The notes beneath the pieces were generated by a model. The model was not told the origin of the DNA, made no database searches, and was given only the letters and a program-made list of their open reading frames with translations. A DNA stretch of 64,000 nt from Tubulanus polymorphus (taxonomy: Eukaryota > Animalia > Nemertea). The first letter of the stretch is position 1, and the number at the start of each line of letters is the position of its first letter. The DNA lies in the NCBI RefSeq assembly GCF_964204645.1, contig NC_134026.1:27500150-27564149 (forward strand), given 5' to 3'. The position numbers were made by a program, and so were the translations under genes. Below are positions 24,100 to 36,000 of this stretch, piece after piece.

Positions 24100-27000
24100 A
24101 TGACAGAAGCTCAGGTGAATGGCCCTGAAAATGGGGGCAAATTCATTGATTCTGTAGGTAGGTAACATTTTCATTAAACTGTTGTCAATAATCGTAAATG
24201 CTGGTTGAGGTGATGTTTTTCTCAAGACACATGAACACATTTTTCTCCCATCAATGACTATGAACTGAATGACTGCTCGCCAGTGGCGTTTATGCAGCAC
24301 TACTGAATTACCATGCTAATGGCTGTCATAAATTTTCATTATGCACTAGGGGTAACAGTAGTGGCAAAAATACAGTTATACAGTTGTTTCTAGTCTGACA
24401 ATGCATTCATGCTAGTATATAATATAATAAACCTAGTATTACAACTCAGCTGTGTTTGCTTTTGAACCAAATGTTATGTTACTTCTCTGTCCTTTTTGAT
24501 TTACAACTGACTCAAAAGTATTAGTGATACCCAGGCAGCTCAATTTGTATAGTACTGAATCTGAATAGTGAATAGTTGGTATCTTAAGAATCGAATTGTA
24601 TGCAATCATCATCTGTAACCTTCCAACTATTTTCTGTGTGTTATAACCTTGCTATCACTCTAATGATGGAGGTGGTTCTTGCGAACATCTGCAGTGAATC
24701 ATCTTCAGTACTGACTACTTGCGGCCTGATCAGATTATCATGATCCTTCCTGCCTGATACTAAGGGAACATTTTAAAATATGTTATTTACAGATCCTGAT
24801 GACCCAGAATATCAGAAAAATCTTCGACGTCCAGCCGAAATAAAGGAAGATGTTCGACAGATGGAAGCGAACAAACGCGTATCGCTCATTTTGAGCAGTG
24901 AGGCATTCCGAGAAGAGCTAGAAGAAATCATTGAAACACAAATTCGATCGGGTCCACACCCCGCTAGTTTAATAGCGTTACAACAGATTTCAGAATTGTT
25001 AGTTCCTACAAGCGGTGGTCGATCCGGAGCAGGGTCCGCTAGAAGTAAGATACCTTTCCATCGCAGTGTCAATGTTATTAGTTAAATTGTTTCTATTGAC
25101 AGATGTTCAGTGAATAGTTATATCAATGCATAAACATTCAGACTAAATTCTATCAGCGAGGACTGTATAATGTATGTATACGATAAAGCATTGTATTTCC
25201 ACATGCTGTTCGCTGAATAGTTTGCTGAAATGAAGAGAATCGTATTAAAACCTAAAACCATTCTTCGTACAAATTCATGATGAAATGAGACTAATTTCAG
25301 ACGTGCATATGTTATGATTTCAGGTGGTTATTCTAATGTAGTGATTCCAATTTCGGATATTCGTGGTGTTGGTTCTTTGAATTATAGCAAACAAGAGAAG
25401 TCTTTGCGAAATAAAGTGGCAGCATGTTACAGACTGGTTGACATGTTTGGTTGGTCCCAGAACGTATATAATCATATCACTGTAAGTACTTGTTTGTTTT
25501 ATGATTTCAGGTCTTCATTTCGGTTTAGTGGCTCCTATTTCGGATATTCGAGGTGTCGCTTCTTTGAATTATTCGAAACAAGAGTTGTCATTAAGGAACA
25601 AAGTGGCAGCTTGCTTTAGACTTATTGATAAGTATGGCTGGTCACGTAGTATTGACACTGGTGTCACTGTAAGTAGGAATTGCTTTAGACCCTATACCTC
25701 GGCGAAGGGTTACTCGCGTTATAATCCAACCTTTTATCCAATCCATGTAGCTTTATTCTAATCATGCATGAATCAATTTAAGTATGATTTTCATATTTTT
25801 ATCTTCATTCTATCTGTCCGTATTTAAGAACACCTTTTTCATCATCATCATCATCGAATTAACTGATTATAGCAGTTCTGAGCTAAAATGCTTAGCTTCA
25901 GTAAATAAGTATATATAAACCGGCAGCAATGCTACGTACTTTGGCTATATACAAAGCAGTATTGATAACCAGAGCTTGATCTGCAATCAATCATTTGCTA
26001 AAGAATCTATTTAAGTTTCAATAGTTAAGATTTTTGATAAGCTATCAAAAATGGTGAATCATCATTACTCTTGAGACTTTCTGAATAACCTTGAGTTGAA
26101 CTTAAATTTGCCTGTGATATTTAGGTGCGATACCCTATTATACACATTGGGCATCGGGTGTTAAAGACAGTAGGTTCAAGGTGTACCGGATCTGTGGCTG
26201 TAGTAGATTACACAGATATCCGGGTTGTAAAGAAAGATCGATATGCATCATTCATAGCTCTATCTCAGCTACACTTGGCTGGTTGCAGCACTAGATGTCA
26301 ACAGATGGTTGAGTAATTACTATGAGTCACTGTGAGTCAATCTCTATCAGGACAACTAGTTTTGATATTAATAATATTCATACAGTAACATTCATAATAG
26401 ATCTAGGTATTTGTTTTTCTGTCCCTGAAACATATTGAGATGCAAAATCAGCTTCTCAGATTATTGATTTCTATGCAGTGAAGAGGTATGTCTGGTATGA
26501 TTGATTTACTAGTGTTGCGGTAGAAGCAGCATTCTGGGCTGTGAGTAATAAATACTGCAGCCTTTACATGACTTGGCTATTACCTGATAGTCTTCTGCTA
26601 TGTATATGAGTAAAAAGCAAGTCAAAGAAGCCGTGTAAATACACTGCTAATACTACAGCTCTATGTAAGCTGATGGAGAACTGAAAATTTAGTATTTGAT
26701 TAGTTGCAATTTGTATGCTGGTACTGACATACATATGACTTCATTAGCATCTCATTATCTTGCTGCAAAAGTGTACAGCAAATATTAGACTACTGTATTA
26801 ATCTATTGCGAATGAGATGATAATTGTTGTATTAATGATTTAGTAAGTGTATCTATGAACTGGCATCTTCTTTGGAATATTTTGAATCAGTAGTAGTAAA
26901 GTATCGGTTCCTATACGTGGTACATTAACAACCAGCTGGTTCTGCTGCGCATTAAATGATAACCACACAATATGCTGTTGTAGATTGAAATGTAAAATCA

Positions 27001-30000
27001 ATAATAGGCTCATGCTCTATGTCTGCAACTATTTCGTAATGTTTCCGTTATAGACATCTTCTATTTCGTAATGTTTCCGTCATAGACATCTTCGAGTGAA
27101 CAGTCTAAAATGCCTTTAGACATCTTCGAGTGAACAGTCTAAAATGCCTTTAGGCTATATGAACCAGAACAAAGTCTGGCTATAGAACAAATATTTAGTC
27201 AGTGATGATATTGGTTTTAAGCCTACTGCCAAACAAAACATTCATTATGGGTTCTTCCCAGTCGGTGCAAGAATTTACTATGAATCAGATGTTTGTTTTG
27301 AAAGTTTGGGAAAAGTTTCATATATGCATCGACTGAAACACTTTACTTTTACTGTTATACTGGAACACAAGACCCCTCGATTAGATATATTTTACCATGA
27401 GGAATATACATATTTAGATGTTCAGGCTTTTGATCAACGCCAGTAGAACTGTAGGTAATAGTGTATTATGCACTTCAGACTTGCATTATCGATGAACAAT
27501 TCCAACAACTTATAACGCATATAGCGTTCTGTCTAAAGGTATTGAATTCATTGTTATTCTATAAAAATCATGTTTGGCCCTACATGATTGTATGAAAATT
27601 GTTCTTTGTGAACCGGTGTTTATATCCTCCGCATACATATTATTTGCAATATATGAAACATTTCTGAAGCAATTATATTCTGTGATATATTTTTTTAACT
27701 ATAATTGTCGCTGTGTGATCTATTTTATATGATTATCCTTCCTCTAAATTGACTGCTCGTTCTGTGATCTAATGAGATGTAAATAAATAATCTCAATTCT
27801 TATTAATGGAATACAAGTCACATTCACTAAATGACTCAATTGGGTACAATGTGAAGGTCAGTGACATTGAATTGACCTCTGCCTAATGCAGTCTACCCTA
27901 TTATTGGGTTTTCACAAAAGTTCATCTATTTTATGTATTGGTGTCATACATATTTGCATGGAATTTTATTTCATTCACTGGGACTATGAGCTACTTTCGT
28001 ATCACAGTGAAAATGGTCTGATCTGTGATTTCCTTGCTATTTTCAGGCCAGAATAAGCCAGGATACAGAACACTTCCTGATCAACCCATTCGGTTTGCTG
28101 TATCATGAAATAACTGCCTCAACTTTGGTGAAGATTGATATGAGGGGAGAAGTCCTCGACCCAGGATCTACAACATTAGGTGTAAACAAGGCAGGCTGGA
28201 TGATACATTCGGCTATCCACCAAGGTCGACCAGATATTAAAGCTATCATCCACATTCATACGCCAGCTGCTTCTGCTGTAAGAATACTTTTAAGCAATCG
28301 TCAATTCTATATCTGTCAACCCGAGCCTGTATGTTTATCGTGAGCGGTATTTCATTTTCAATTGACAGGTGTCCGCGATGAAATGTGGACTTCTCCCGAT
28401 TTCGCAAGAAGCTTTAGTCATAGGTGGAGTTAGTTACCATAGCTATGAAGGAATCTGCATCGACGCAGAAGAAAAAGAAACTTTACAAAGAGATTTAGGA
28501 CCCATTAATAAAGTGTGTAGAAGCATGTCTGATTTTGAGTAGACTTTAAGGATACTTTGCATCTAAATTTTGCATGTTTGATTTTTAGGTGATGATTTTA
28601 CGTAATCATGGTGCAGTAGCGTGTGGTGAGACAATAGAGGAAGCTTTCCACTATGCCAGAAATCTGATGGAAGCATGTGAAACACAGGTACGGCAACTGA
28701 GCTACATCTAGAATATTAAGTGAAATTTCAGCTGTGGACGAGACAAGATGATCACTAGCTGTCTCAAACTGTATTTTCTTTCATTATCGGTAAATGGATA
28801 TGGAATATTTTAGGTACGACTGGCCCCAATCGGACTGGATAATTTAATTCAAGTCGATGAAGAAACTCAGAAGAAAGTAGCCGAAACAGCCAGTAAAGGT
28901 GGTGGTGGTGTGAATATGAAATCAGAGGGTGGCAGAAAATGGAGAATTGGTGAATTAGAATTTGAAGCGCTGATGAGACAGTTAGATAATGCTGTAAGTG
29001 TTGAAATTTACCACTACATTATAGATATTTCATACATGAGCTGCTGCATGAGCATACTAAGTTTTGATTCTGCATTCCATTAGCTTTACGCATAATGATC
29101 CATTTAATAGCAGTTATTAGATTAAATTGTTTTTACTATCAGCAAAACCCACACATTCCTACATAGAGTTCATCCTTATCTGAACTAGTTCCTTCTTCTG
29201 ATTTTGATTTCCTGTTGTTAGATTGGGTCACGTAGATTTCAGATCCTTTACTCACTCCTATCTCTATGAGACACGACATTGCTTCTACTTAATGTTCTAT
29301 TAAGACTCAACAACTTAATATGGTTTCAGACATGACAATTAATCAATATTGAATCAATTGATAGAAAGGATTGATTTGAGATATAGGCTGTATAAGTCAG
29401 TAGGTAATTGATTCATCGGTAGATCAAGGAATGACAACTTAACAATTCGCTCACACTGTATAAACTTTTAATTTGATGTTAACTGTAACATTTCAAAGAT
29501 ACTTGATGTCATACTATAAAACCTAATGATCGAGTAATATGGGGATGGTACACTATATAAGTGTATGTATATGTATATCTAGTGAAGCTTGTTAATGGTA
29601 TGGATTACGCTTACATTCTGTGTCAATAGCAATTCATGCTCGCAGTGAAGGTCACTGTGTCAAGATCTAAATGTCTGATATGATATTGGCATGAGTGTAT
29701 GCTATTTATTGTATATTCATGCATGGTTTAATTATCCCTATGGTAAAACCTAATCATCATGAAATGAATCTTCCAGTAGCTGTATGATGACTAAAATGAC
29801 ATCTTGTGTAAAATTAATGAGTTCTGCTTCCAGACATTTTATGTGTGTACTTAATATCTGCCAACATTTAGAAATCAGTCAGTTGTTTATTTCATCTCAA
29901 TCTAAATAATCATTGACCTATTTGACAGTGCTGCTCCTGAAGAATCTTGACTTCCAGTGATGAATATGTTTTATTTATCTTACAGGGATACAGAACTGGA

Positions 30001-33000
30001 TACCAGTATCATCAAATTATTTCCAGAGAACCAGCTGATAAAGGACACAGTGATGTGGAGATTCCACCTGCGACATCATCACTGGCTTACCAGGATGATG
30101 ATATGTCGTAAGTTCTCTATAACTCGCCAGCATTGCTACTGAATCTAACTCGATTTTACTTTGGTGATTGAATGTATTTTTTCGGTATCATATCCTAGAT
30201 CGCCGCTTAAATTGGCGTTGGAAAAACAGAAGAAGTCTTCGCGTAAAGAATGGTTAGTGTCAACACCGAATACCTACATGAAGACTCAGATTGAGGAAAC
30301 CGGTACCTCTAATCCGAAACTGATTACCAAGGTAGGTCAGCTGTCAACTGAGACGGAAATCTGATGGGGAAGATCATCTGCAAATTAAACCACATGAATG
30401 TAAAGTGCTTTAATCCCTTTCGATTTAACATAATATACCTTTGTATTTGTCGTGTCTGCTCCATTGCTTCTATGGAAGTTAATTGAAAAAAAAATCTGCT
30501 AATGGGGAAAATTTTAACCCATTTTATACTCAGATTTTAGTGATTTAACAGCTATTCCAATGAATGTAATGATATATCATTTGCGTATGAATATGATATT
30601 TGATATTATCAATTGTGTAGGTTAGTCGATGTTGTGGTAAAATAGTAACTTGTGCTACAATAGTAAATGGAAAAATTATGTAATTGCTTTGCTTACTAAA
30701 ATCTAGTTCTTTGCGTAATTCAACAAAATGAATAATGTATCTCGAGTTTCTAGGTATCTTCTATCGCAATCGTACATCAATTGCTGAATTAGTCACTCTG
30801 AAAGTCCTATATAAGATTGTGTAGATGATTTTGAAATTGGCTATCGATTTTGTCTCGACAAGGTGTGTGTTCTTGCATGCTTCACTGTGAAGAATTGGCA
30901 TTTATTGTGTCTATGTTAAAAGCATAAAGAGTCTCGACGATACATAACGTCATAATCTTAATCTGTAGTGCCATTAACCGCTTTTTGTTAAAAGAGGACG
31001 CGTGGTTGTTGAAATCATAGCGAGCTAGTCCCTACCTAAAGAAAGAGCAATATTGCTAGATATTTTATTTCTAAAGAAAAGATATTTGTATTATGGACTT
31101 GTCCCCAAAATCCATTATTTATTGTGCTGATAATCAATCACATTTATGTATATGGAAATTTTTACCATACTTATAGTTACTTACATTTCTGAATTTTTAT
31201 ATGACAATATAATTTGAGCGTCAAATCAGTCAACACTCAGATAGAGTACAAATATGGCTTGGCTAGGAGAGCGCATGTCTGAAGAAGTCGTCCTATCATT
31301 ATTTCGATCATTATGTGCTTCCATTATTCATATTGGTGTAATATTTAACTCTTTCCTTCAGGCATTCAATGCTCTTCAGATTCTTAGGTACTTAAGAAAA
31401 ATTATCAGTCGGGTTTTTCGATGATAGCTACAGCCCAACTTTGAAACCAGTGGGTCATGTATGAAGATTACTAACGTTTGTTAATGTGCGTGCTCAAAGT
31501 AAAGAGAGTTCTTGAATTGACACTCATGGAGTATAGCTTTGTACTGTCATACTTGTTTATATTTGTGCAACCTATTACCCCGCTATAATACACAAATATT
31601 AGGTTTTTTACATCCGATGATCTAGGAATAAGTGAATCATGATTACGTTTCGCTAACCGAGGTGATTCCACTATCAGAATCAATAACTTTTAATTTTAAC
31701 TGAAATTATTTTATATAATTGGAAGCTGATGATGCTAGATATTCAATTCTTCACGCTACATATACCATTATCAGCAGAGCTTTACTGGTGCAATTGCAAG
31801 TCAGTGTAATTTTGTGAGGTCAGGATACTTAGTAACTGATACTATAATTGTAAAGGGACCAGATTTCCATCAATGTTCAACGCAAGTTATTTTTACAATT
31901 TTCGAAGGCATTCCTCGCCTGACTCATTCCATAACACGTGATGCCAACCATTAATACACTCAGATTAATGGAGAATGGTCCCTGCACACTGATTGTGTAC
32001 TGACTTTTGCATGTAATTTGAAATTTTTCCACTGATTTTGAATTATTTAAGAAATAAATAAATTTGATTGCTTCATGCTTTTAACCGCACGATTGTTCTT
32101 GTTAACTAGTCAATCAGATAAAAAGGCTCTATCTGGATATCGGATTAGTGTTTTCATTGTATTGTCAAATCTAACCAAAACAATTTTTACGATTCATTAT
32201 CGCTCATTTATATTTTATTGAATTTTCATTAACATGTTATTGCATGCACTCTTGTTTGACAAACTACTGCAATCTAGATAGAGCCTATATGTCTCTCTAT
32301 GGATGCAGTTCTTCGATCATTTTTTCCGATCATTCAGAGCCTTTTTGTCGGTTGGTTGGTTGCAGGAATTCTCGCTCACAGTTTTGGCCTAGGTACATCA
32401 TTCTCCCGAGACCTCAAATCACTTTCGATCACTGTGTTCTCCCTCGTCTCTTGAGATGTAACAAGATTCCATTTTATTTGGAGCCTGAGATATGGTGGAA
32501 AGGAAGCCTATTAAAAGCATCGAATCAGGAGAGCGACACCTGAGGGATTATCATAGGAGTGGATTATTTGAGAGGAATATTAGATTTCAGGGAGTATTAT
32601 TAGATAATGTTTTTATTGATTTTGAATAGTGGGTGGCTGAAGGAGATGCTGGGGAATCACCGGCAAAGTCAAAAACCGGAGAGACTATGAAATTAGAAAA
32701 TCCAAATTCATTCGCACCACAGGGAGAAAATCCTAAGGAGTTGAGGGCCAAACAACAGCAGGTAGGTAGTTGGGGTCGACTTTTCTGTCCTTTCCTATAA
32801 ATACAAATTGGTTACGGGTAGATCTTACAGAGAAATATTCTTATTGCTACAGTTGAGAAACCAATATTACACAGATAAGATAAGCGCTGGACCACAGTCA
32901 CGAATCCTTGAGGGTACTACGTGGGAAGAAGCGCGTAGAATGCAGGTATGTATAATTAAGCTAAGATCGTAATTAGTTCTTACAATTATATAATGTCCTG

Positions 33001-36000
33001 CTATGGTAGACACTTGTTTTGTTTTTTTGTGGCCAGATTATGCTAAATTTGTCTAGAATGATTACAATCTATTGGAATACTGATTCACTGATTTATTTTG
33101 CCTGATGTTGTATTTTGTAGGCTGAAGCTGTAAGTCGTTATTAAGTTTGGTTTGTTTTACATATCTAGTATACTAAACAATATTAGCTTTTATTTACTAA
33201 CTACTATAAGAAGCACTTCCTGGTTAGCTGATTAAATGATACAACTCAAATTTATTTCATTCGATTCGCAGTTAGAAAGAATTTGATTTTTCCCGGAAGT
33301 GCTTGTTTTCAAGGTTTTCTATAAAATGTTCCCATAACGTACAACTTGGAGTTTTGCATTGGGTTAGTTCGGTACCCTAATGTGTGTCAAGGTTGTTTGT
33401 GTATTGGCATGCTATAGAAACAGACTTAGAATAGTAGCTTTTCTTCTTCAAGTTAACTTAATAATTACAACATTACATTAATGATAACCTCAAACAAAAT
33501 AAAGGTCTATTTGGCACATAATTTTGATTTCGTATCCTGATAGTTGGTTACAGAGTTTGGTGTTGGTTTGTTTTTTACATTACTGTTTAGGCCAATGTAA
33601 GAGAATTTGTTCGCTATTTTGTAATAGGATGGTAATCTGAGTGGTGCTGGAGATGTTGTGGTTGTTGGAGCAGCGTCTAAAGGTATTATACAGCGTGAAC
33701 ATCAGCACAATGCAGTTGTATATAGGAGTTACTTCGCACCAAATCCATTTGAAAGTATGACTGATGAAGACATCCAGAAATATAAAGATGAAATAGACCG
33801 CAAAAATCGAGGTAATGTATGGTATTTGATTTAGTTTTCCCCTTGCGTTTGATACATATATTCTCTCATAAATTACCTGAAGATGTGTCCATTTCTGTGA
33901 ATGATTTACAAAATCATATTTCTGCTTATCTGAGGTAGTTTCGACCTTTCTATCATTAGAGAGAAATATTTTTTGCATGTTTCTAAGATTTGTGCGATAT
34001 AAATCTACCCCGTATAAAAGTTATTGCTCTAAATGCATGTGGATTGAAATGAATTCTTACGCTTCGGATTTCATTGAGCTCATCATATACTAATGTTATA
34101 AACTACGGTAACTGTTGACGGAGCGTAGAGTGTTTTGTGATATGTGTGCGTGTGTCTGTTTTTGTATAGGAGATGCTCCTGAAGTAATCGTTGAAGGTGG
34201 TACTGAACTACAACAAGAAACCAACGTCGATGAATTCGAGCAAGGTAAAAATATCTGTACATTAGTTCAGTATTACCTCATATTATCGTAGATATATTTC
34301 TGTTGTAGATCGATTGTACACTCACATCCTTCGTATAGATTTTGTTTCGTAGATTCAGATTATTTTAGGTTAAATATTTTTGTGTGTCCACTGTGATATT
34401 AATTTCAGAGGAAAAGTTGTATCGATTTAATTTTAATGAGCAATTTGATTAATGCAGGTGCACCTAAAATTGAGGAGTTACCTCTAAAACAGCAGATCGC
34501 CTCGAAACCGGAATCGGGTCCTAAACTAGTACCTAAAGACGAATCAGATTCCCCGCCTGAAATAAAAAAGGAGGGCGGTTCGCTACCAGCGACAAGTATT
34601 AAACCGAGACCGAAATCTGGTGGTTCAATGACTCCTCCACCTAGAACTGATAAGGATCGTTGGCCTGAATTGCCGAATCGTGCTAATACTATGCCACCCC
34701 CTGTTCCACCTAAACATAAAAGGGGTTTGTTTATTTCAATTGTCCATTGATAATGGCTTCGGTTAACAGGTTTTTAATGCTTAGCATGCTGGATTGATAT
34801 TTGAAGGTTATCACTTTGAAACAACTGCACTAGACTAGAGGGTCGATATAGGTATGACATATTCTTATAAGGACGAGAGAATCAAGTGATAGGGATCAAG
34901 TTTTTAATATCAATTTTCAATGCACAACTTTTCTGTGAGTTCTGAATATTTTGATATGGAATGTTTTGCTAGGAATTTTCAAGTTAAAAGATATTCACAA
35001 ATGTGCATGTGTGCTGTGGTTGTAATGGCTTGGGTATTTGCAGTAGATAAAATGCAAATGCTTTCGATATATCAGTTGACTAAATTGTTTCTAAGAATAA
35101 GAACAAATCTTATAATATTTACAAAATAGTCCTTAAAAATAGGAAGATAAGATGGGAATATGTGATTAATAAATGTATTATTGATATGTAGGCAATGATG
35201 ATAAAAAACACAAAACTCCTCCACTTAAATGTTGGGGTAGGTAAACAGGACTGAATACTTGGAGTGTATACCTATATACATAATATTGAGTTTCCCTGGG
35301 ATATACATGTAGTATAGTCTACCGATATTCCAGTGAAGCTCTTTGCATGTTTTTGGGAAAACTGGTTTCTCAAGGGTTGATATCTCCTATGCTCTCCTCA
35401 TATATTTGTTTTTGTTTTTAATGGCTCACAGCACATTCCCTCGGATCGCGAAAATCTTTAGAAACAAATCTCGATGACATTGAATTAACCCCTGATGGGC
35501 ATGCACCGACTCCACCTTTGAAGACTGCATCTGTTCGTCAGGGTTGGTATCTCATAAGACATTTCTCTTGGGGTTCGGTTACACTTATTCATTTCGACAG
35601 TTTATTTTTGATTTATTTTTGACGCTTGAAACTGATGCAGCGCTGGATATAATGATAGGGTCCCTACGGCTCCTTGATTCCTTGAAAACTCCTTCTAAAC
35701 CAAAAATATTTTTCAAGGTCCTTGAAAATCCTTGAATTTGAGTAAAATGCCCATAAGTCTTTGAAAACTTAAATTTTGAGAAATTGGCAAATTAAAAAAT
35801 TCTAAGGTTAGGCCTAGTTATTATACACTCAGATTCCACCGAATAAAATTGTTTGCTAAGTTGAACAACACCGATTTAGGAGGAGTCAACAGTAATTGAG
35901 ATACGAAAGTGATATACATACACTTTCTCCTTGAAAAGTCCTGAATTCTGGAAAGACTTACCGGTATCTGTAGGAACCCTGAATAATTATTTCGGTTATC

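Follow-up and report, generated by a model that had tools for sequence, protein, structure and literature searches.

Alternative one-or-the-other splicing of a tandemly duplicated adducin head exon in the nemertean Tubulanus polymorphus

Pairs of exons that are spliced one or the other, because the two lie too close together to be joined, are a well-known class. In Caenorhabditis elegans, exons 9 and 10 of let-2 are separated by an intron of 30 nt and exons 5B and 5A of egl-15 by one of 14 nt, in each case too short to be excised (PMC4165533). The same organism also has clusters of exons whose lengths are not multiples of 3, and 14 of 19 of these rely at least partly on decay of the aberrant mRNA (PMC4165533). 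Exons 2 and 3 of rat Tpm1 and exons 4a and 4b of OGDH owe their exclusivity to a different distance, that from donor to branch point, which is 41 nt in the former and 25–41 nt in the latter (PMC7969005) and for which the minimum is put at roughly 50 nt (PMC5740500, PMC7969005). Mutually exclusive exons typically vary near functional sites (PMC7954323).

Adducin of vertebrates forms alpha/beta or alpha/gamma heterotetramers, the subunits being encoded by three genes, ADD1, ADD2, and ADD3, and the adducin splicing treated in the accessible part of the same account is that of a cassette exon near the tail (PMC5976920). Hts of Drosophila is the product of one gene and has been modelled as a homotetramer; neither splicing nor isoforms are mentioned in the accessible sections (PMC12599920). 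A preliminary description of the locus reported here, made from its sequence, knew of no description of mutually exclusive exons for adducin, and we likewise found no report of them in an adducin head among papers searched by title and abstract opening, with subscription papers and web-hosted data lying outside the scope of the search. Adducin gene names are absent from the supplements of PMC5740500 (10 files) and PMC7954323 (6 small files, the main data set being web-hosted), and from the human supplementary table of PMC8373072, in which the control, TPM1, is present 27 times.

The exon pair and its transcripts

The window analyzed here is a stretch of 64,000 nt of DNA from the nemertean T. 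polymorphus, the + strand of which carries an adducin gene with a coding sequence running from position 24100 to about 38927. The exon 4 product agrees at 100% identity with RefSeq proteins annotated as 'hu-li tai shao-like', and the N terminus contains the class II aldolase-like head (PF00596, E = 2.7e-20 in a Pfam search) that marks a metazoan adducin. The best match of the product, both by sequence and by fold, is 8IAH. Alignments to pig alpha- and beta-adducin span residues 13–749 and 3–750, respectively, so that the neck, the tail, and the lysine-rich MARCKS-related C-terminal segment are also present.

The head is encoded in part by two versions of exon 3, referred to here as A (25324..25481) and B (25511..25668), which lie between a constitutive upstream exon 2 (24793..25044) and a constitutive downstream exon 4 (28047..28277), all on the + strand. 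Exon A is the ancestral-type version, encoding residues 105–156 with Y152-N153-H154, exon B is a derived version with D152-T153-G154, and exon 4 carries the class II aldolase/adducin domain together with H225 and H227; Pfam searches with exon A alone and exon B alone returned no match for either. Each version is 158 nt long, exactly at the positions first given for them, and 111 of the 158 nucleotides are identical. Their acceptors both finish ATGATTTCAG and their donors are both ACT|GTAAGT, a shared context that was also part of the original description. A repeat search showed that the pair is a head-to-tail duplication of a unit of 187 nt, in which the exon is preceded by a 23-nt acceptor tail and followed by a 6-nt stretch of donor: copy 1 occupies 25301..25487 (+) and copy 2, which is 72% identical to it, 25488..25674 (+). 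The spacer between the exons (25482..25510, +) thus consists of the 6-nt donor of A and the duplicated 23-nt acceptor tail, 29 nt in all, and no excision of it was seen. Two further, neighboring tandem duplications, of 32 and 34 nt, lie in the intron downstream of exon B (27029–27150).

The reading frame is open through exon 2, A, and exon 4 and likewise through exon 2, B, and exon 4. Because the exon length is 3n+2, joining or skipping both versions shifts the frame, as had been proposed, and early stops were computed in each case: inclusion of A and B together leads to a stop 5 codons into B, retention of the 29-nt gap also produces an early stop, and skipping of both leads to one about 20 codons into exon 4.

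Transcript evidence was drawn from assembled contigs. The sets X2, X5, and X6 were taken as RNA from their GT..AG joints, X5 and X6 being from one sample and X2 from another study. X3 and X4, which have neither joints nor cover at the exon pair, and X7, which has almost no match, were not used as evidence. (X7 is labelled as the same species as X1, a DNA-like set considered below; its match to the head-coding region is limited to 41 nt and the flanks diverge, and it is possibly from a different species.) Contigs of X5 contain GT..AG joints for exon A (25044>25324 and 25481>28047, depth 46.4) and for exon B (25044>25511 and 25668>28047, depth 22), the direct B joints being those of one run and one sample with a short side of 25–28 nt. 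The two depths together approximate that of the downstream contig (70.2; that of the upstream contig is 48.5), and the share of B is about one-third, although contig depth is a poor gauge of level. Both forms occur within this single run, and a tissue-specific binary switch is therefore no more than a possibility. X6 (depth 14.1) has joints for exon A only. A contig of X2 starts at 25640, exactly 30 nt ahead of the last base common to the B donor and exon 4, and a branch in a 31-mer graph is expected at that position if B splices onward; this boundary is indirect support for B splicing from a second study. Mapping of RefSeq proteins likewise joins the donor of exon 2 to A, which is present in 7 of 7 isoforms of the cluster. 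Since all use A and none uses B, exon B has remained unannotated.

Neither an A>B joint nor one that skips both versions is among the joints listed for the two spliced runs, X5 and X6, of the four examined, with the qualification that contigs lose rare forms and that decay could mask double inclusion. The junctions are those by which homologous mutually exclusive pairs are recognized in the accessible text of PMC5740500: 25044>25511 bridges A, 25481>28047 (in X5 and X6) bridges B, no listed joint connects the two, their joining would be frameshifted, and the exons share length, phase, and homology (33 of 52 residues identical). Exons A and B are therefore spliced one or the other, and the feature is expressed and unannotated. 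The mutual exclusion predicted from the sequence is thus supported by four single-inclusion joints, and the junction mapping proposed as a check of whether B is read found that it is, in contigs of X5.

The same gene has other variants. A 9-nt microexon encoding Ala-Glu-Ala (33121–33129, +) in the adducin tail occurs in none of the 7 RefSeq isoforms; it is included in X5, as 8 extra letters at a joint, and X2 also has the skipping joint. Long contigs of X2 and X5 extend over the intron past the donor at 30331 (30332–32088, +; depth 437 in X2), where read-through stops after 10 codons, which suggests a short isoform without the tail and the MARCKS-related end. A proline-rich alternative tail exon (34459–34726, +) is found in 1 of 7 RefSeq isoforms and is skipped by a joint, 34242>36456, in X2 and X5. 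Finally, an adducin intron contains a dispersed high-copy repeat (35655–35920), for which the bin depth in X1 is about 70x that of its flanks.

How joining of A to B would be prevented

Of the introns that the listed adducin joints support by RNA, the shortest measures 76 nt, in line with the figure of about 75 nt originally set against the 29-nt gap, and the next are 91, 91, 91, 114, and 126 nt. The spacer is also below the donor-to-branch-point limit of about 50 nt, such that any branch point within it would be sterically too close to the donor of A. The spacer does not, however, appear to be where the branch point of B lies. A motif scan of 25482–25510 gave no nTnAy at a distance of at least 12 nt from the AG, and the sole branch-point-like adenines for B are 25471, 25474, and 25479, all of them within the 3' end of exon A (25466..25481, +). 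The predicted branch point of exon A itself is adenine 25294, 30 nt ahead of the exon, in the sole yTrAy match within 60 nt of the A acceptor (25289..25295, +). These assignments use a motif that is weak in AT-rich DNA, 1 of 17 acceptors being without any match.

Adenine 25294 sits seven bases outside the duplicated unit, and the duplication of 187 nt would thus have left the branch point of A behind. Exon B probably borrows a branch point within the last codons of A, upstream of the donor of A; where the branch point of B precedes that donor, an intron from A to B cannot form. The 3' end of A would then double as code and as splicing signal, with factors at the A donor competing with those at the B branch point and occupancy of the 3' end of A deciding the choice. 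Frameshifted products that leaked through would probably be cleared by nonsense-mediated decay, acting as a second safeguard. An arrangement of docker and selector RNA structures was also considered: 33 short inverted repeats were found and, among the 25 listed, none pairs one common site with both exons. Overall, joining of A to B is likely to be physically blocked.

In let-2, egl-15, bet-2, gly-5, and gly-6 (accessible parts of PMC4165533) a tandem pair, a sub-minimal spacer, and the absence of double inclusion are found together, as here. The exons of those five clusters are 3n, whereas the nemertean pair is 3n+2, with decay as the additional safeguard, and only in the nemertean pair is the branch point of the second exon predicted to lie inside the first. 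In the preliminary description, alpha-tropomyosin was cited as the precedent for introns that are too short. Exclusion by closeness is still likely, but rat Tpm1 is a case of donor-to-branch-point distance, and let-2 and egl-15 are closer precedents. Tpm1, OGDH, and the nemertean pair are alike in that donor and branch point would be too close for joining. They differ in that the branch point of Tpm1 and OGDH follows the donor and lies a long way from the acceptor, whereas the nemertean candidates are upstream of the donor and the whole spacer is only 29 nt.

Origin of exon B and selection on it

Trees were built on 47 columns with rows hand-picked from homologue sets, the vertebrate beta and gamma sequences being left out. 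In a tree of 27 rows A and B pair as sisters with support of 85/75, and in one of 36 rows, which includes motif-degenerate sequences, they do so with 100/95 and end branches of 0 and 0.4. Uniting A with two other nemertean-type sequences to the exclusion of B was rejected (p-AU 0.018). Duplication within the Tubulanus lineage is the simplest reading of these trees.

A full HMMER search with exon B returned 183 matches, and among the 149 examined of the best 150 there is no close orthologue, the top identity being 65%; conservation of B in relatives, put forward at the outset as a check, was therefore not found among the matches listed. Y-N-H is retained in 67 of these 149 and absent from 82, of which 8 have D-G-Y or D-S-Y; a repeat protein among the 149 is a spurious match. 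Searches by word index with exon B gave nothing at longer or near lengths, but one of them also missed A-type proteins of the same species, and these negatives accordingly carry little weight. Among the isoforms listed for Lineus, for five mollusc clusters, and for other named species, no second exon type is present, and no tandem copy of exon 3 inside one gene was found in 80 loci, many of which are transcripts or bacterial. The pattern used for the metagenome scan included Y-N-H, biasing it to A-type genes.

The searches yielded some other divergent heads. In genomic contigs of low GC content, a canonical adducin gene is preceded, at a distance of about 1.3 kb, by a coding region for a divergent adducin head (10181–11912 of L004, also L005, L038, and probably L061), giving a second head type through gene-level tandem duplication. 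Exon-sized open frames with the same donor end have D-G-Y or D-S-Y in place of Y-N-H (P0210, P0216, P0220, P0225, P0226, P0231, P0247, and P0249), and the five of these that were tested group as a clade at 99/98. Three full-length adducins (P0212, P0327, and P0332) lack both Y-N-H and the His triad.

Of the 33 residues that A and B share, 14 have codons that differ silently. When the 47 base changes were re-placed randomly in 100,000 trials, the observed amino-acid identity was reached 1 time. The pN/pS ratio of the pair is 0.43 (bootstrap 0.24–0.76); in the core, codons 8–42, dN is 0.13 and dS 1.05, a dN/dS of about 0.12, and codons 43–52 contain 7 replacements. The earlier suggestion that both copies are under selection agrees with these values, on which the core of B is under purifying selection. 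Against five outgroups, the lineage-specific changes of B and A are in the ratios 9:1, 10:1, 9:1, 11:1, and 8:3, with p = 0.021, 0.012, 0.021, 0.006, and 0.23; the first four are significant and the fifth is not. By this comparison, B took nearly all of the amino-acid change since the duplication. Fourfold sites are identical at 7 of 15 positions between A and B, whereas comparison with a nemertean-type transcript (L001) gives 5 of 13 in the case of A and 14 of 28 in that of exon 4. A young duplication, initially read from dS, was dropped, as silent sites near saturation cannot date the pair. The same near-saturation implies that the copy is old enough to have decayed if unused.

We favor, with a probability of roughly 0.72, the reading that a tandem duplicate of exon 3 is spliced one-or-the-other into otherwise identical heads, that double joining is likely to be blocked, and that the head containing B, without Y-N-H, is predicted to assemble with a remodelled vestigial loop. 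That B is instead a leaky, decaying duplicate, spliced through good sites that it happens to retain and having lost Y-N-H under relaxed selection, would account for all of the change having fallen on B, for the failure to find an orthologue, and for the lack of B in RefSeq isoforms and X6. It is nevertheless unlikely, since frame, length, and splice sites of B are intact although silent sites are near saturation, the low core dN/dS and the randomization both point to constraint, and B makes up about a third of X5 contig depth, poor gauge of level though this is. A somewhat smaller chance attaches to exclusivity that exists only in surviving mRNA, the 29-nt intron or the skipping of both exons being used to some extent and nonsense-mediated decay destroying the products. 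Both aberrant forms do stop early, 158 not being a multiple of 3, and the partly decay-dependent non-3n clusters of C. elegans (accessible part of PMC4165533) offer a parallel, but 29 nt is far under both the shortest intron and the donor-to-branch limit (PMC5740500 and PMC7969005, as accessible) and the spacer is without a branch-like motif; the part that concerns skipping of both is still plausible.

It is very unlikely that the pair is ancient, with B descended from an old motif-degenerate adducin type, beta-related or of the D-x-Y group, the core of which was later converted toward A. The many listed matches without Y-N-H, including the eight with D-G-Y or D-S-Y, speak for such an origin, trees that group B with either of two motif-degenerate groups were not rejected (p-AU 0.149 and 0.13), and fourfold sites do not place the pair younger than the nemertean split. 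The best trees nonetheless join B with A, the acceptor tails of the two are still 16/20 identical despite being non-coding, and neither the listed isoforms nor the 80 loci gave a second exon type or a tandem copy. As for an assembly artefact, or A and B being alleles or the exons of two paralogous genes, we give this next to no credence. The view is that of a 64-kb window rather than of the whole genome, which leaves room for a second adducin gene in this species, and X1, which lacks splice joints and is DNA-like, is possibly from the assembled individual, yet its contig was built separately and represents another haplotype. This one contig (24749–27058) runs across both copies and departs from the window at 18 bases over 2304 nt; none is listed within A or B, where chance would lead one to expect only about 1.6, so that the zero is uninformative. 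Moreover, the copies are 30% divergent, and in RNA each is spliced to the same exons on either side. The artefact against which the first description had advised a check is thus largely contradicted by X1.

The two heads and their vertebrate counterparts

A model of isoform A was built from 36 sequences (mean pLDDT 57, mostly 65–90 in the head), and its fold matches 8IAH and class II aldolases. In it, the exon 3 product forms a helix (126–144), a loop, and the start of a strand (154–158). The alignment to FucA opens at residue 146, equivalent to FucA 21, and residues 148–154 fall on the alpha1-beta1 loop of FucA (23–27) and Asn29, a mapping good to plus or minus one residue. In the accessible text on FucA, this loop is mobile and essential to substrate binding and Asn29 binds phosphate (PMC11841055). 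None of the 36 aligned rows and none of the 25 tree outgroups, the rows having been gathered via the downstream exon, departs from Y152, N153, and H154, which B replaces by D-T-G. Exon B would therefore swap a conserved motif in the loop of a vestigial aldolase active site, as judged from alignment and model. The change from YNHIT in A to DTGVT in B had been noted correctly, but its location was taken to be the head surface in general and not this loop.

Other positions are retained. Through the alignment, G146, R140, and the hydrophobic residue 151, all kept in B, correspond to G134, R128, and L139 of Hts, of which the first belongs to the central cavity and the others touch the neighboring subunit (accessible part of PMC12599920); because B retains these positions, tetramer assembly is probably preserved. 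Isoform B would also keep the His triad, H225/H227/H288, which comes from shared exons. The two heads are otherwise identical, the 19 of 52 residues of exon 3 that differ being clustered at the pocket loop. Which heads came together, in homo- or mixed tetramers, would depend on the ratio of A to B, in the way that vertebrates combine alpha with beta or gamma chains encoded by separate genes.

Loss of Y-N-H is seen in other adducins, such as those of fly and wasp (G-A-Q in Haematobia and G-G-Q in Ampulex), but unlike isoform B these have also lost the His triad. Of the 13 matches without H154, 12 also lack the triad (21 of 28 long matches being scorable, and rows not independent), which suggests that loss of H154 with retention of the triad is an uncommon combination. 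Pig beta-adducin shares it, with D-T-Y at the Y-N-H site and the triad kept. Gamma-adducin is likewise not known to have the Y-N-H motif. At residues 145, 152, 153, and 155, B matches pig beta and A matches alpha, in a comparison made after the fact and with motif loss being frequent in animals. Over its whole length exon B scores 35.6 bits with alpha versus 33.9 with beta, Y145 and V155 are found in 4 of 25 and 5 of 25 invertebrate rows, and D152 and T153 are each a single base change from Y and N. Orthology of B to vertebrate ADD2 or ADD3 did not emerge from the trees, from which beta and gamma are absent and in which B is sister to A of its own species. Because of that sister relationship the likeness to beta is probably convergent, and it could be due to chance.

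A bolder proposal, which we regard as doubtful, is that the ribbon worm reinvented the vertebrate alpha/beta split within one gene, an exon without a branch point of its own making use of one in the codons for just that motif which it discards and giving a beta-like subunit for mixed tetramers. If this were so, repeated loss of the loop in partner subunits across animals would imply that the dead-seeming aldolase pocket of alpha-type subunits still binds a ligand or partner, and the number of such pockets per tetramer would be regulated. The findings rest on one species and a well-known splicing class, and the reading of an alpha/beta-like split in one gene, though appealing, is unproven. They bear nonetheless on the need of vertebrate adducin for two kinds of head and on whether its aldolase-like pocket acts. 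About half of the residues differ between vertebrate alpha and beta, and the motif difference cannot be isolated in them for that reason; the A and B heads are a clean natural pair in which assembly, actin capping, and metal or ligand binding could be compared. A duplication that leaves a branch point behind would, in addition, be a simple route to exclusivity at birth, and the RefSeq set is corrected by addition of the B isoform.

It is likely that head subunits of two kinds are provided here by one gene. Adducin of vertebrates, whether alpha/beta or alpha/gamma (PDB 8IAH), has two head types, with and without Y-N-H, as does the nemertean gene. The vertebrate subunits, however, are the products of separate genes and differ along their full length, whereas those of the nemertean come from one gene and differ only in 19 of the 52 residues of one exon.
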